Virus record (IMG/VR): IMGVR_UViG_2778261276_000004
DNA length: 5,063 bases
Source of the DNA: a virus
Taxonomy: Duplodnaviria > Heunggongvirae > Uroviricota > Caudoviricetes
Reading direction: 5' to 3' (one strand)
Shown: in pieces, positions 1,028-4,040 of the stretch
Position numbering within the stretch: position 1 is the stretch's first letter
Layout of the letters: every line of letters begins with the position of its first letter
Position numbers and translations under genes: made by a program
Notes under the pieces: generated by a model
What the model was told of the DNA's origin: nothing
What the model saw: the letters and a program-made list of their open reading frames with translations, nothing else
Databases searched by the model: none

Positions 1028-1366
1028 CTATTTCCCTGAATTTACGACGAAACTGTTCGAGCGGGCTGAAGCACTCATGCTCATAGCCTTCACGGAGGTA
1101 GATAACCCGTTGTGTTTCCGGCTCCCAACGAATGACTCTGACGGGCACTCCGTAGTGATCTTTGAACCAGCGGTTAACTTGTCGCAAAGGACTGTCTCCT
1201 TCTGCCGGTTGAAATCACCCACAGCCCACTCAGCAAAGCTGTGGGTTACAATTTCCCTGTCACCTGGTACATTAACTGCATAGCAATACTCCACCTTCGC
1301 TTTTCCACCCGGTACAGGAAGTGCAATCAGTTGCGAGCGACGGTAGTGTGTTGTTAAACTGTTCAT
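1028..1366 (-). CDS. hypothetical protein; the 3' portion appears frame-disrupted or overlapped by a second small ORF
   Basis: ATG at 1366..1364 overlaps the TGA stop of the upstream CII-like gene (ATGA overlap). The N-terminal ~57 aa read as protein, but the C-terminal ~55 aa in this frame are Ser-rich and low-complexity. The frame shifted by one base is open from about 1208 to a TAA at 1010..1008 and reads as a balanced protein sequence (…[58 protein letters not shown]). Confidence 0.5.
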
Positions 1367-1932
1367 GCGTTAGTTTCTCCACAACCAGAAGCAATCGACG
1401 CCACGACGCCCGGAGCTGCACACTCGCGGGCGTCATTACTTTCTGAAATGCAAAAAATTTTGTAGACAAGTGCTGCATGCTCCTGCAGCTTCGAAATTGA
1501 GAGATACAGCTCGTCGTTAATTGCTGTCTTCTCATGCGGTTCCACTACACCGTCTTCGATTGCTGAACGAATCTGTTTTGAATAACTGCCGATCTGTTCA
1601 ATGACTTCCAGCAGACGCTGGTTAATATCGGCGTTGTCCACATCCTCGACGTTAGGAAGAGACACAAAGACGCCATTTGCAGACTGCGCCACAGCATCAG
1701 CAATGAAGTGAGTTCCACCAGCACGTTGCAAAATCATTGCCCATCCCAGCGGGAAAATCTGATCGCCATCAGCACGAAGGCGGTTAAATAATGCGTTCTC
1801 TGTTACATCCAGCCAGTCAGCTGCTTCAGCGTAACCACCCGGCAACTTTGCGATAGTTTTTCTGACAGCTTTCACGTACCACTCAGGCTGTTTTTCTACT
1901 TTCCAGTGATGCTTACCCACGGTTAGCCTCAT
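1363..1932 (-). CDS. CII-like transcriptional regulator (phage CP76 / YdaT-like family), tentative
   Basis: Gene immediately downstream of cro on the same strand. The ORF-track start at 2034 is a GTG that overlaps cro, so the true start is probably the ATG at 1932 or the GTG at 1920 (GAGG 6 nt upstream). Size and position fit the CII-type regulators of the 186/YdaT family; family assignment is from memory of the overall pattern, not a search. Confidence 0.55.
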
Positions 1933-1957: not shown

Positions 1958-2158
1958 TTATCCATTAGATTTTTCATAAAGCTCAGGTTTAAATGGCAAC
2001 CGTCCGCAAGTTCTATATGCAGCTTCTGCTGCACGTCCTTTTGGAATTAACTGGCCCGGACGGTTTCGCCACTGATAAACGGCTTCAGTTGTTATGCCGA
2101 AAAAAGCAGCAACTTTCTCAATACTGCCGAAGTAGCTTTCGATATCGTCAGTTGTCAT
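1958..2158 (-). CDS. cro: Cro-like HTH repressor (YdaS-like small DNA-binding protein)
   Basis: 66-aa ORF transcribed divergently from the repressor gene. GGAGG lies 4 nt upstream of the ATG at 2158. The motif VAAFFGITTEAVYQWRNRPGQLIPKGRAAEAAYRTCGRL resembles Cro/YdaS-type helix-turn-helix proteins. Confidence 0.8.
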   Translation of the reverse strand: MTTDDIESYFGSIEKVAAFFGITTEAVYQWRNRPGQLIPKGRAAEAAYRTCGRLPFKPELYEKSNG

Positions 2159-2255
2159 ACGCCCTCCAAACTAAGTTTTATTAGATGCTAATTACAAATC
2201 TATCTTTGGTCAATAAAAACTAAGATTACTTAGCAATTCAAGAAATGGTGCTCCT
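2159..2255. promoter_or_regulatory. OR-like operator/promoter region between cro and cI
   Basis: 97-bp intergenic region. Minus-strand promoter candidate for cro: -35 TTGACC (plus-strand ggtcaa, 2208-2213), 17-bp spacer, -10 TAGCAT (plus-strand atgcta, 2185-2190). Palindromic operator-like sites: ctaagttttattag (2171-2184), ttagatgctaa (2181-2191, overlapping the -10) and ctaagattacttag (2220-2233). AACTAAG occurs at 2169-2175 and 2218-2224. The cI promoter is not confidently placed. Confidence 0.6.
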
Positions 2256-2882
2256 ATGGAAACGGTTGGTCAGCGTATAAAAGCTCTGAGAAGAGTTACC
2301 AGAACGTCCCAGAAAGAATTGGGTAAATTTTGTGGAGTAAGCGACGTTGCTGTGGGGTACTGGGAGAAAGACATCAATACCCCTGGTGGGGAGGCACTTT
2401 CGAAATTAGCGAAGTTCTTCAATACGTCAATAGATTACATTCTTTATGGTGCTGAGTTTGAAGGCAAACTCGTCACAAACATGCGCAGAGTTCCTGTAAT
2501 ATCGTGGGTTCAGGCTGGGCAGTTTACTGAGTGCAGGGCAGCAGAAGTGTTTAGTGAAGTGGACAAGTGGGTAGATACATCATTAAAGATTGGTGATAAC
2601 TCATTTGCATTAGAGGTTAAAGGTGACTCCATGACTAACCCTAATGGCCTCCCAACAATACCAGAAGGCGCAACAGTGATTGTAGATCCAGATGCAGAAC
2701 CTCGTCATGGAAAAATAGTAATCGCTCGACTTGATGGAACAAACGAAGCTACAGTAAAAAAATTAGTCATCGATGGCCCTCAAAAGTTTTTAGTGCCATT
2801 AAATCCTCGGTATCCCAACATCCCTATCAATGGTAATTGCCTTATCATTGGTGTAGTCAAAGGAGTTCAATACGAACTCTAA
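2256..2882 (+). CDS. cI: CI-like prophage repressor (XRE-type HTH plus LexA-like S24 autopeptidase domain)
   Basis: 208-aa ORF. N-terminal HTH (QRIKALRRVTRTSQKELGKFCGVSDVAVGYWE). C-terminal domain has the catalytic Ser in GDSM and a Lys in ATVKKL, with a candidate Ala-Gly cleavage site in SWVQAGQF. Divergent from cro. Confidence 0.9.
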   Translation: METVGQRIKALRRVTRTSQKELGKFCGVSDVAVGYWEKDINTPGGEALSKLAKFFNTSIDYILYGAEFEGKLVTNMRRVPVISWVQAGQFTECRAAEVFSEVDKWVDTSLKIGDNSFALEVKGDSMTNPNGLPTIPEGATVIVDPDAEPRHGKIVIARLDGTNEATVKKLVIDGPQKFLVPLNPRYPNIPINGNCLIIGVVKGVQYEL

Positions 2883-3067
2883 GACCTCTCTTCTCTAACT
2901 AAGGCACCGAACTAAGAAAAGTTTGGTGTTTTCTCTTGCCATAATAACTAAGTTAAGTTAGATTTTATATCAAAGATAACGAACAGGCAGGACGCCCACG
3001 AAGTAGCCGCCTGGGGCATATGAAGTCCAGGATGATTCGTTGAGTCATGTTGTGCCACTAGGCACTC
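2883..3067 (+). promoter_or_regulatory. OL/PL-like operator-promoter region downstream of cI
   Basis: AACTAAG recurs at 2897-2903, 2910-2916 and 2946-2952. The 14-mer ctaagttaagttag (2948-2961) matches the OR site ctaagttttattag at 11 of 14 positions. Plus-strand promoter candidate: -35 TTGCCA (2936-2941), 17-bp spacer, -10 TAGATT (2959-2964), with the operator overlapping spacer and -10. Hairpins at 3015-3036 (CCTGG...CCAGG) and 3052-3065 (GTGCC-acta-GGCAC) lie in the leader. Confidence 0.45.
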
Positions 3068-3088
3068 ATGTTAAAGCAGGTGTATGAA

Positions 3089-3364
3089 ATGAAAGTCCAG
3101 ATTTTAAACAATAACTGTGAAGTCGTTTGGTCATACGACATAGCCGCCCCTGTAGATCAGAGCGGCGATAGCTGGACCAATGGGAAACATCAGATTATGG
3201 CTGGAGTTGTGTTCTCTTTACGCCGTGCTTTGGAACAGGCTGAAGTATTTCCATCAGACCCTGAATGGAAATGGCCTTTTTCTATTTGTCCAAATTCGGA
3301 GAGCACATTTCAGAAAATTGGTCAGAAAGTCGCACTCGAAGAGCATCAGCCAACTGTTTCCTGA
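3089..3364 (+). CDS. hypothetical small protein, first ORF of the early-left transcript
   Basis: ORF track gives 3068..3364. The ATG at 3089 is preferred because AGGTG (3078-3082) lies 6 nt upstream. No arginine-rich motif, so it does not look like an N-type antiterminator. The 3' end overlaps the convergent ORF at 3282..3527 by 83 nt, so one of the two may not be real. Confidence 0.4.
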   Translation: MKVQILNNNCEVVWSYDIAAPVDQSGDSWTNGKHQIMAGVVFSLRRALEQAEVFPSDPEWKWPFSICPNSESTFQKIGQKVALEEHQPTVS

Positions 3365-3527: not shown

Positions 3528-3699
3528 TTGATTTTCCTTTTATGTATACGGGCTTAAAAGGATACCACCGAGCCTGAAGTGGTGAAAAGACAGGCACATA
3601 ACAGCTAAGTATTTTCAACCAAAGAGAATCCTTAGCGTTGTGGTGAATGCGGCTCAGCGCACGCGGGTTAAGGTTGAGGCTGACAGTCGACCTTCTGTG

Positions 3700-3827
3700 G
3701 ATACCCACCCGCCTGGTGTGCAACCTTCGCCAGGCACCGGGAGGCACCCGGCACCACAACTTTATGCTGTGTGTAGTCTTGGCGGTACCAGTTTGTACCC
3801 TTGCTTCCGGCTGGTATCGCCCTTTTT
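3700..3827 (+). ncRNA. candidate small RNA ending at an intrinsic terminator (possibly DicF-like); 5' boundary undefined
   Basis: GC-rich, hairpin-rich segment with no protein-like ORF on either strand. GGCGGTACCAGTTTGTACCC (3781-3800) resembles, from memory, the GGCGGTATCAGTTTTACTCC segment of E. coli DicF. Its location in the early-left operon of a lambdoid prophage matches where dicF sits in the Qin prophage. Confidence 0.3.
3781..3827 (+). terminator. Rho-independent terminator (plus strand)
   Basis: Stem GGCGGTACCAG (3781-3791) pairs with CTGGTATCGCC (3811-3821), 11 bp including one G-U pair, with a 19-nt loop. It is followed by C then TTTTT (3823-3827). Confidence 0.55.
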
Positions 3828-4040
3828 ACAAAACAGAGAAGAGCATCACCGGACGACGGGCTTATAACCCAATCCATCCGGGCGGCTGCTACCGCAGGTG
3901 TTCTTCTCTGTTTTGTGGAGAAACTAACTGCCCCTGCGGGGGCATTTATGGAAATGTAATTGACTCAATAATCGCCGGACGGTGAGGGCTTCCTTTTACC
4001 CGAATTCAGCGCGGTGCAGCGCATATACGTGGAGAACAAA

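Follow-up and report, generated by a model that had tools for sequence, protein, structure and literature searches.

Results

Genes and predicted control sites around cI

The window, by which we mean the whole 5,063-bp stretch of DNA that was analyzed, carries a cI repressor gene, a divergently oriented cro-like gene and a gene for a CII-like activator, with predicted operators and promoters in the intergenic DNA that flanks cI (Table 1). The N-terminal domain of CI had its best Protein Data Bank matches in the P22 c2 repressor (3JXB, 2R1J, and 1ADR; E = 4.4e-11), with an ungapped alignment over residues 3 to 65, and its recognition helix reads S29-D-V-A-V-G-Y-W36. The C-terminal domain matches Pfam Peptidase_S24 (E = 9e-28) and is closely related to that of lambda CI (E = 7e-28). 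It shares with lambda CI the Ala-Gly cleavage site (A87-G88 in VQAG) and the Ser/Lys dyad (S125 in GDSMT, and the lysine in VKKL that is aligned to that of lambda FKKL), which makes RecA-dependent induction and cooperative contacts plausible. The cI leader is 20 nt long and contains a Shine-Dalgarno-like GGTG. The cro-like product belongs to PF14549 (P22_Cro; E = 4.4e-11, 42.8 bits against a cut-off of 30.2).

Table 1. Genes and predicted regulatory features in the window
Feature	Position	Strand	Sequence	Remarks
CII-like activator, YmfL/CP76 family	1363-1920			
cro-like gene, 66 aa	1958-2158	-		First gene of the PR operon; Pfam P22_Cro
OR1 (predicted)	2169-2186		AACTAAGTTTTATTAGAT	18-bp dyad; covers the predicted PR start and abuts PR -10
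PR -10 hexamer	2185-2190	-	TAGCAT	TAATAT in most relatives; promoter scan, conserved column block
OR2 (putative, weak)	2193-2210		TACAAATCTATCTTTGGT	Degenerate dyad without the 7-mer; overlaps PR -35
PR -35 hexamer	2208-2213	-	TTGACC (plus strand GGTCAA)	Promoter scan; near-invariant among relatives
OR3 (predicted)	2218-2235		AACTAAGATTACTTAGCA	cI-proximal dyad; most symmetric and best conserved in relatives
cI repressor, 208 aa	2256-2882	+		Pfam HTH_3 N-terminal domain and S24 autocleavage C-terminal domain
Orphan AACTAAG	2897-2903	+	AACTAAG	No partner half-site; 3' end within the extended terminator stem
Hairpin and U-run	2901-2932	+	UUUUCUCUU	Candidate intrinsic terminator of cI
OL2 (predicted)	2910-2927		AACTAAGAAAAGTTTGGT	Upstream of PL -35; right arm doubles as 3' arm of the terminator stem
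PL -35 hexamer	2936-2941	+	TTGCCA	TTGACC or TTGACA in relatives; promoter scan, conservation
OL1 (predicted)	2946-2963		AACTAAGTTAAGTTAGAT	Between PL -35 and -10; 5-bp overlap with -10
PL -10 hexamer	2959-2964	+	TAGATT	Promoter scan; conserved

AACTAAG repeats are concentrated on both sides of cI

An earlier note on this DNA had reported five copies of AACTAAG around cI, all of them intergenic, and far more than expected for a 7-mer. The exact count and coordinates were confirmed: the copies start at 2169, 2218, 2897, 2910, and 2946, all lie on the plus strand and in the intergenic DNA flanking cI, and the window holds no others. The expectation for the window was 0.64, and five copies were reached in none of 200 dinucleotide-preserving shuffles.

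It could be argued that such repeats arise from chance or from the composition of AT-rich intergenic DNA. The G+C contents of the two intergenic stretches are 32% and 44%, and the bare 5-mer CTAAG was not enriched across the window (9 seen, 7 expected). However, when the intergenic stretches 2159-2255 and 2883-3067 were shuffled 5,000 times with their own dinucleotide content kept, AACTAAG occurred on average 0.09 times and at most twice, against the five copies observed, and the sites are kept between genera with fixed spacing. Chance or composition as the origin of the repeats, to which we would give next to no credence, is already refuted by these results.

The wider motif search showed a low density outside the immunity region. 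Six copies were found in the 43.5-kb record of a 99.7%-identical phage and six in 41 kb of a 99.8%-identical E. coli prophage with host DNA; in each of these two records, five copies fell within the immunity region, leaving one further copy per about 41 to 43 kb.

The repeats are predicted to be halves of 18-bp dyads at PR and PL

The earlier note's view of AACTAAG as a marker of repressor-binding sites is, judged by sequence, essentially right, since the dyads around it are conserved and track the CI helix (see below). The likely unit is larger, though: AACTAAG forms the left half of an 18-bp dyad of the P22 c2 type, A(A/T/G)CTAAG-N4-CTTAG(A/T)T, which we predict to be the repressor operator, and the putative OR2, which has no 7-mer, had been missed. 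Four of the five copies lie in conserved dyads (OR1, OR3, OL2, and OL1), the exception being that at 2897. The N4 centers are A/T-rich: TTTT at 2169, ATTA at 2218, AAAA at 2910, and TTAA at 2946.

We scored the dyads with a weight matrix that was trained on relatives only and for which the 95th percentile of the shuffle maximum was 11.5, a matrix score not being an affinity. The four highest-scoring positions, both among the approximately 5,000 of the window and among the 43,469 of the phage record, were 2946, 2169, 2218, and 2910, all above that percentile. A promoter scan found only two sigma-70-like matches in the intergenic DNA, PR and PL, and the dyads overlap both, in agreement with the overlap with the cro and early-left promoters that had been proposed.

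In the region between cro and cI, OR1 scored 22.6 and OR3 scored 20.4 (19 to 26.6 in relatives), and column conservation was highest at OR3 among all sites. OR1 is conserved in 18 loci, where its distance to OR3 is invariably 49 bp. The starts of OR1, OR2, and OR3 are spaced 24 and 25 bp apart, and 4 bp separate PR -35 from OR3. The score of OR2 (2.5) is not significant alone, as chance gives 1.7 such positions per window. The best-scoring middle 18-mer lies exactly 24 bp from OR1, in the OR2 register, in 16 of 19 loci, and symmetric variants of OR2 occur: that of Rahnella (TACTAATCTTTATTAGGT) scores 12.4, and that of mEp460_4F5 has the canonical right arm CTTAGG.

The four palindromes that had been quoted as containing the motif are all present in the window, and three of them correspond to cores of conserved dyads. 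This does not hold for ttagatgctaa (2181-2191), which is not an operator; it consists of the right OR1 arm running into the -10 hexamer of PR, and only a few relatives retain it as a palindrome. The 2897 copy is unpaired.

On the plus strand of 2159-2255, the promoter scan found no consensus promoter for maintenance of cI. Two candidates picked by hand, a -10 element TAAGAT at 2221-2226 and TGGTCA-18-TAGCAA at 2207-2236, were left out of Table 1. Wherever it is placed, a rightward cI promoter must overlap OR3, and we infer the relation between OR3 and PRM.

The predicted OL sites and the probable cI terminator

Downstream of cI, OL1 scored 25.5, the top value of both the window and the entire phage record, and most relatives have the same sequence. 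The copy at 2897 had a dyad score of -13. In mEp460_4F5, the sequence at this place is AACCAAA, and most relatives lack the copy, a CTAAG being retained there only by LLS, L004, and L020. The missing partner half-site and the poor conservation ruled it out as a third OL operator, and it is probably not an operator.

The hairpin at 2901-2932 has an RNA folding energy of -15.1 kcal/mol (z = -3.2), and a U-run comes after it. Its stem is retained in 9 relatives, with one compensatory pair (C-G to U-A in LLS) and several G-U changes, and SfV has an annotated terminator at the equivalent position. The hairpin is the probable intrinsic terminator of cI.

All of these properties of the hairpin would also fit a different account of the copy at 2910, in which it is only a part of the cI terminator, its AACTAAG is incidental, and PL is controlled from OL1 alone. 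The right arm of OL2, GTTTGG, is off consensus and poor as a half-site, and it is equally well accounted for by the terminator stem. On the other hand, a loop is normally free to vary, yet CTAAG is preserved in this hairpin loop, the remainder of which varies among AAAA, TTTA, and TTAA. In Yersinia, Providencia, and Proteus, the equivalent of OL2 upstream of PL -35 is a full dyad, 33 to 34 bp from OL1, and in Yersinia and Providencia it lies outside any such hairpin. P22 OL2 is found at the equivalent place, and 95% of shuffles have a maximum below the dyad score of OL2 (13.4). The two roles are also compatible, one being exerted on RNA and the other on DNA. We therefore consider it unlikely that the copy at 2910 belongs to the terminator only, and we retain OL2 as a predicted operator.

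An Rfam scan of the window gave no match in the operator regions or in the PL leader. The conserved block in the PL leader resembles HK022 putL only in position, length, and end motifs, with nothing significant found by blastn-short, and no second copy of the block with up to 3 mismatches, as an analogue of putR, was found in the window.

The half-site changes together with the CI recognition helix

Across cI homologues of 63 to 90% identity from Enterobacter, Kosakonia, Kluyvera, Serratia, Rahnella, Yersinia, Rouxiella, Providencia, and Proteus, the dyads have kept both their position and their sequence, in contrast to the DNA around them, which diverges. In a footprint of 18 loci from about ten genera, which are homologous and do not count as independent observations, the conserved columns were the half-sites of OR1 and OR3 and the -35 and -10 elements of PR.

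Every homologue with the helix GVSDV(A/S/T)VGYWEKD (GVSGVAVGYWEKD in Proteus) keeps CTAAG sites. Homologues from Photorhabdus and Xenorhabdus with the P22-like helix GVSHVAISQWEKE have TTTAAG-N4-CTTAA sites, and those from Morganella and Proteus with the helix GVNRVTVTGWEKG have TGTAGG-N4-CCTACA at the equivalent positions. The comparison shows that the half-site changes together with the recognition helix of CI, defining three predicted specificity classes. Most cI homologues bearing CTAAG sites are adjoined by a Cro orthologue with the helix (S/T)EAVYQWRNR. The sites track CI rather than Cro: in the Rouxiella and Serratia aquatilis loci, a Q antiterminator gene replaces cro, and OR1 and OR3 are still present.

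These observations bear on the possibility that CI acts elsewhere and that the sites are recognized by the CII-like activator or by a host nucleoid protein. Lambda CII binds direct repeats, the five 7-mers here are all direct repeats on one strand, and the regions are AT-rich. However, what is conserved is an inverted dyad whose center is fixed at 4 bp, changes of the half-site go with changes of the CI recognition helix through the three classes, and the sites persist where a Q gene has taken the place of cro as the leftward neighbor. A CII-dependent cI promoter would be expected inside or beyond cro, not downstream of cI, and the positions of the sites relative to the promoters match those of the P22 c2 operators base for base. 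Recognition by either of these proteins instead of CI is thus very improbable, and CI remains the favored ligand.

Relationship to P22, lambda, and SfV/e14

Judged by sequence, phage P22 immC, not lambda, is the nearest of the known systems. Among the elements of a c2-type module, the following are found here: a c2-like helix-turn-helix domain, an S24 C-terminal domain, a Cro of the P22_Cro family as in P22, and 18-bp dyads. The N-terminal domain of P22 c2 aligns with that of CI without gaps, although the identity is only about 40%. The key P22 Val33 (Val31 here) and the downstream Glu48 (Glu46 here) are conserved, whereas P22 Glu44 is replaced by Thr. Both systems have 18-bp dyads with 5- to 7-bp half-sites, an A/T-rich 4-bp center, and a TAAG core. 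Neighboring OR sites are about 24 bp apart in both (23 and 25 bp in P22 DNA); here OR1 and OR3 are firm and OR2, to which P22 OR2 is equivalent in position, is putative. The 4-bp gaps between PR -35 and OR3 and between PL -35 and OL1 are identical, and OL2 is 35 bp from OL1 in P22 and 36 bp here. In contrast to P22, where OR3 abuts the c2 ATG, cI here has a leader, and OL2 lies within the probable terminator hairpin.

The P22 operator consensus is ATTTAAGATATCTTAAAT, with TTAAG half-sites and a 4-bp center that is not contacted (PMC5175364). When T at operator position 3 is changed to C, binding of the P22 repressor falls to the nonspecific level, with a KD of at least 136 nM, at least 16-fold weaker (PMC4267663). 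ATTTAAG-N4-CTTAAAT sites and the recognition helix SNVAISQW, which mark the P22 immunity group, were not found here; the half-site is AACTAAG, which differs from ATTTAAG at positions 2 and 3, and the helix is SDVAVGYW. Since both half-site and helix differ and operators with C at position 3 are not bound specifically by the P22 repressor, the immunity group is different from that of P22, and the difference at positions 2 and 3 would make the phage heteroimmune to P22.

Lambda shares with this locus the divergent cI and cro genes, an OR of three sites (the middle one putative here) with about 24-bp spacing, and, beyond the end of cI, another operator cluster at the early-left promoter. The OR/OL logic of lambda that the earlier note had proposed thus holds for the layout, in that conserved operator clusters lie at the divergent cro/cI region and at a second early promoter beyond cI; as the nearest model, lambda gives way to P22. 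The DNA-binding domain and the 17-bp operators of lambda have no sequence kinship with those found here. No more than two OL sites are convincing, and these lie on either side of the -35 element instead of being adjacent to each other as in lambda. Unlike in lambda, rexAB is missing from the interval between cI and PL, which brings OR and OL to within about 730 to 780 bp of each other, and no N gene such as that of lambda is evident downstream of PL.

SfV and e14 (ymfK-ymfT-ymfL) have the same gene order of repressor, cro-like gene, YmfL-type cII-like gene, and replication genes. The flanks are shared, identity being 93 to 100% in the PL leader block and the 3' portion of ymfL, whereas the repressor, cro, and the intergenic DNA are replaced. 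Only 9 to 14% of a 1.2-kb query was shared, so the locus is a different immunity cassette on the same phage backbone.

Discussion

We consider it highly probable that the window is the immunity region of an SfV/e14-like lambdoid E. coli prophage and that the AACTAAG dyads are operators for CI, and very probably also for Cro. Dimers of CI, encoded between the two clusters, would bind the two-fold symmetric 18-bp operators, and the divergently encoded P22-type Cro very probably binds the same sites. OR1 would act over the start of PR, touching the -10 element, and the weak OR2, probably filled cooperatively, over the PR -35 element, while OR3 would overlap the promoter that maintains cI. OL1, between -35 and -10, and OL2, upstream, would flank the -35 element of PL. 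In a lysogen, CI on these operators would silence PR and PL and autoregulate cI. RecA-stimulated self-cleavage at Ala87-Gly88 would lift repression, and after the loss of CI, Cro would shut off cI through the same sites. The analysis showed the motif statistics, the conservation of site sequence, spacing, and promoter register between genera, the joint change of half-site and recognition helix, and the protein homologies; what we infer in this scheme is that the sites are bound, how their affinities rank, that binding is cooperative, that the cI promoter is activated, and what Cro does.

A less conventional order of sites could be considered. Among the dyads, symmetry and conservation across relatives are greatest at OR3 and not at OR1; OR3 is often the perfect AACTAAGATAACTTAGTT and is kept in loci without cro. 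For these reasons, OR3 might be the primary CI site, acting in tight negative autoregulation or as a roadblock by PR -35, with OR1 and OR2 being secondary, and the family might display a readable CTAAG/TTAAG/GTAGG recognition code on one scaffold, in which D30, G34, and Y35 here are contrasted with N32, S36, and Q37 in P22. If so, the affinity hierarchy of the switch would differ from those of lambda and P22. We regard this as a rather speculative proposal that is probably not correct.

The locus appears to be an ordinary lambda/P22-style switch whose particular operator sequence was apparently not described before. A full-text literature search for the exact operator strings returned no paper, the 91 papers mentioning mEp460 were prophage-typing reports with none on the switch, and we found no experimental literature on this immunity group. 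The comparative evidence sets out which operators belong to an immunity group often met in E. coli and how its promoters are arranged. The operators would predict homoimmune prophages and phages for studies of induction and superinfection and for orthogonal repressor/operator pairs. C instead of T at operator position 3, with the matched helix changes, may be a naturally occurring switch of specificity within a repressor family whose structures are well understood; apart from this contrast with P22, the switch is a textbook lambdoid one.

The operator had been described as specific to this phage and as defining its immunity group. The second part agrees with a half-site that follows the CI helix, as expected for an immunity-specific sequence, but the operator is not that of one phage: 513 of 5,426 complete E. 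coli genomes contain the full module, and several other genera of Enterobacterales also have members of the group. Among sequenced phages, only five carry the module. The same sites were seen in the phages vB_EcoM-689R6, mEp460_4F5, LLS, and Kati.

Gene organization and relatives of the window

The open reading frames and their families identified the window as a lambdoid immunity region in the "backwards" orientation (see the table below). E. coli prophages matched its DNA at 99.7 to 99.8% identity, as did phages vB_EcoM-689R6 and vB_EcoS-569R4; identity fell to about 95% for mEp460_4F5 and to about 77% for phage LLS. Of 5,426 complete E. coli genomes, 513 carried the full module, and in strain KSC1031 the prophage adjoined a tRNA-Thr gene beside proA. 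The prophage shares its backbone type with SfV/e14, but its repressor-cro cassette is unlike theirs.

Genes, predicted promoters, and scored half-site positions in the window
Feature	Position	Strand	Details	Matrix score
O-like replication gene	77-1018	-
Small ORF	1028-1366	-	112 aa, phrog_1170
cII-like gene	1363-1920	-	CP76/YmfL family
Cro	1958-2158	-	66 aa, P22_Cro family
CI	2256-2882	+	208 aa; N-terminal HTH_3, C-terminal Peptidase_S24
ORF, function unknown	3068-3364	+	downstream of cI, same strand
PR	-35 2213-2208; -10 2190-2185	-	TTGACC, 17-nt spacer, TAGCAT
PL	-35 2936-2941; -10 2959-2964	+	TTGCCA, 17-nt spacer, TAGATT
OL1	start 2946			25.5
OR1	start 2169			22.6
OR3	start 2218			20.4
OL2	start 2910			13.4
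OR2 candidate	start 2193			2.5
Orphan half-site	start 2897			-13

AACTAAG is the left half of a conserved 18-bp dyad

The earlier note had proposed the repeated 7-mer AACTAAG as the mark of repressor operators around cI. The motif count in the window agreed exactly with its five plus-strand copies, at the starts tabulated for OR1, OR3, OL2, OL1, and the orphan half-site, with no copy elsewhere in the window. The expected number was 0.64, and five copies were reached in 0 of 200 shuffles. When just the two AT-rich intergenic stretches were shuffled with their own dinucleotide content preserved, the mean was 0.09 copies and the maximum was two in 5,000 trials, so the claimed excess held against both expectations. 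No similar density was seen elsewhere: a near-identical 43.5-kb phage record (L083) and 41 kb of prophage and host DNA (L085) each contained one extra copy outside the immunity region (at 22338 and 25120, respectively), and the matrix scan placed neither in a dyad.

Both intergenic regions were aligned with those of mEp460_4F5 and LLS and then with twenty loci encoding CI homologues of 63 to 90% identity from Enterobacter, Kosakonia, Kluyvera, Serratia, Rahnella, Yersinia, Rouxiella, Providencia, and Proteus. The conserved unit across the loci was an 18-bp dyad, A(A/T/G)CTAAG-N4-CTTAG(A/T)T, of which AACTAAG is the left half-site. A half-site weight matrix trained on the relatives only was then scanned over the window and the phage record. 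OL1, OR1, OR3, and OL2 were the top four positions in the window and in the entire 43.5-kb record alike, and all scored above 11.5, the 95th percentile of the shuffled-window maximum. The centres of these four sites were A/T only. The copy at 2897 was rejected as an operator: it had no partner half-site, read AACCAAA in mEp460_4F5, and was absent from most relatives.

In each firm site the left arm was more perfect than the right, and the right arms of OR1, OL1, and OL2 overlapped or abutted another signal, either a -10 hexamer or a terminator stem. The perfect 7-mers are probably confined to one strand because the right arms share these other signals. A column-by-column profile of 18 loci showed that the conserved blocks were the OR1 and OR3 half-sites and the PR hexamers, with drifting flanks. 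The least ordinary feature was that OR3, rather than OR1, surpassed the other sites in symmetry and conservation. A different affinity hierarchy could lie behind this, although matrix scores are not affinities.

Position of the sites relative to promoters

The promoter scan of the intergenic DNA found sigma-70-like matches only at PR, the leftward cro promoter, and PL, the early-left promoter on the far side of cI. The hexamers were conserved or improved in relatives (PR -10, TAATAT; PL -35, TTGACC or TTGACA). OR1 abuts the PR -10 and spans the predicted start, the candidate OR2 overlaps the PR -35, and a 4-bp gap separates the -35 from OR3, which is only 20 bp away from the cI ATG; therefore, a rightward cI promoter, if any, must overlap OR3. 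Between the PL hexamers lies OL1, which shares 5 bp with the -10, and OL2 is upstream of the -35. Thus, the suggested overlap of palindromes with the cro and early-left -10 elements stood for OR1 and OL1. The ttagatgctaa listed with them, however, joins the right arm of OR1 to the PR -10 and is not a separate site.

OR1 and OR3 started 49 bp apart in all loci examined, and in 16 of 19 loci the best-scoring 18-mer between them was exactly 24 bp away from OR1. At this place the window has a degenerate dyad, TACAAATCTATCTTTGGT (2193-2210). Clearer symmetric versions occupy the same position in Rahnella (TACTAATCTTTATTAGGT, score 12.4) and in Enterobacter and LLS (AACCAATCTAACTTTGGT), and the right arm in mEp460_4F5 is a canonical CTTAGG. 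From this conserved placement we infer that 2193-2210 is a weak OR2, probably needing cooperative binding.

OL2 lies within the probable cI terminator

Directly after the cI stop codon, the plus strand at 2901-2932 can form a 13-bp hairpin (-15.1 kcal/mol, z -3.2) followed by a U-run, UUUUCUCUU. Nine relatives kept the stem, showing one compensatory pair along with several G-U changes, and an annotated terminator occupies the equivalent place in SfV; the hairpin is probably the cI terminator. OL2 falls within it, with CTAAG in the loop and the right arm forming the 3' stem. It is unlikely that this stretch serves as a terminator only, since CTAAG is kept in the loop while the remaining loop bases vary. 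Furthermore, Yersinia, Providencia, and Proteus have a full dyad 33 to 34 bp upstream of OL1, which in Yersinia and Providencia lies outside any such hairpin, and OL2 of P22 occupies the same place. These comparisons indicate that OL2 is also an operator, so that one stretch would act as both RNA terminator and DNA operator.

CI as the probable protein reading the sites

Three lines of sequence evidence tie the putative operators to CI. First, all homologues keeping CTAAG sites, including those with as little as 63% overall identity, keep the recognition helix GVSDV(A/S/T)VGYWEKD (in Proteus, GVSGVAVGYWEKD). Second, more distant homologues have other helices and other half-sites in the same architecture. 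Loci of Photorhabdus and Xenorhabdus (L024-L030) combine a P22-like helix, GVSHVAISQWEKE, with TTTAAG-N4-CTTAA sites, and those of Morganella and Proteus (L031-L034) combine GVNRVTVTGWEKG with TGTAGG-N4-CCTACA sites; in both groups the variant sites precede the cI homologue by about 150 bp. Third, in Rouxiella (L013 and L015) and Serratia aquatilis (L009), a Q antiterminator (PF06530, E values of 1e-48 to 1e-50) replaces cro opposite the CI homologue. The OR1 and OR3 dyads persist there at 49 bp with an unchanged recognition helix, and the sites therefore follow CI. No OL cluster was found downstream of cI in these three loci, which represent a reduced repressor-Q module. Most other loci encode a Cro orthologue with the helix (S/T)EAVYQWRNR beside CI, and by analogy with P22 and lambda, Cro should use the same sites.

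Together, the window, L024-L030, and L031-L034 make up a natural series of three specificities built on one scaffold. L012, L016, and L026 probably also have a repressor facing a Q-type gene instead of cro.

Comparison with P22 and lambda

The C-terminal domain of CI matched lambda CI (E value of 7e-28) and has both the Ala-Gly cleavage site and the Ser/Lys dyad, while the best match of its N-terminal domain was P22 c2 (2R1J and 3JXB; E value of 4e-11, ungapped). The six natural operators of P22 c2 share the consensus ATTTAAGATATCTTAAAT, in which TTAAG half-sites surround a non-contacted 4-bp centre, and its Val33 packs on four thymine methyls of TTAA (PMC5175364). Val33 is conserved as Val31 in the window CI, and the TAAG core is conserved as well.

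Read directly from P22 DNA, the layout is nearly the same. The OR start-to-start spacings are 23 and 25 bp in P22 and 24 and 25 bp in the window, OL2 to OL1 is 35 and 36 bp, respectively, and the gaps from the PR -35 to OR3 and from the PL -35 to OL1 are 4 bp in both. However, the P22 half-site ATTTAAG and AACTAAG differ at positions 2 and 3. Changing T to C at position 3 leaves wild-type P22 repressor with non-specific binding (KD of at least 136 nM, at least 16-fold weaker) (PMC4267663). The position-3 C, combined with the helix changes N32D, S36G, and Q37Y (P22 numbering), plausibly sets a separate immunity. Judged by sequence, the module is homologous to P22 immC and is predicted to work alike, yet its immunity is not that of P22.

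A search of 50,697 phage records found the N-terminal domain at 90% identity or more in only five (vB_EcoS-569R4, Kati, mEp460_4F5, vB_EcoM-689R6, and LLS), and the next best match was about 54%. Full-text search of the searchable literature found no paper containing the operator strings. On these grounds, the operators of this immunity group seem not to have been reported, although the kind of system is thoroughly known.

The PL leader and other features

A 64-bp block on the plus strand (2978-3041) begins just past the predicted PL start and was 84 to 100% conserved in 49 phage records of differing immunity cassettes, including SfV, SfII, SfIV, ST64B, YeP1, phiNP, SPN3UB, and mEp237. In its consensus fold, an outer stem is combined with an inner hairpin of 5 bp, in which three pairs show compensatory changes. 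The block resembles HK022 putL in position, size (about 65 nt), and end motifs (ACGAAC...CAGGATGA), but no significant sequence similarity to putL was found, and an Rfam scan of the block gave no match. There is no N-like gene after PL, and a put-like cis-acting antiterminator RNA is therefore a reasonable lead; by this analogy, the block may be a candidate.

Inside the O-like gene, a 15-bp unit, CAGATTTTGACGGGT, is repeated 4.3 times in tandem at 646-709, with 81% matches. The copies look like replication-origin iterons within an initiator gene, as in lambda ori. A weak Rfam match to "mir-5880" at 643-717 was attributed to this repeat. Two minus-strand ORFs, 1008-1187 (59 aa) and 1028-1366, overlap in different frames; KSC1031 and 689R6 are annotated with a DUF4222 protein here and mEp460_4F5 with the 112-aa protein. 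A non-coding stretch of about 480 bp (3540 to 4013) contains a full-length match to the sRNA family STnc100 at 3615-3830 on the plus strand (41.7 bits, slightly under the gathering score of 47; E value of 9.5e-7), and the Rfam scan also gave a faint DicF-like match at 3768-3822.
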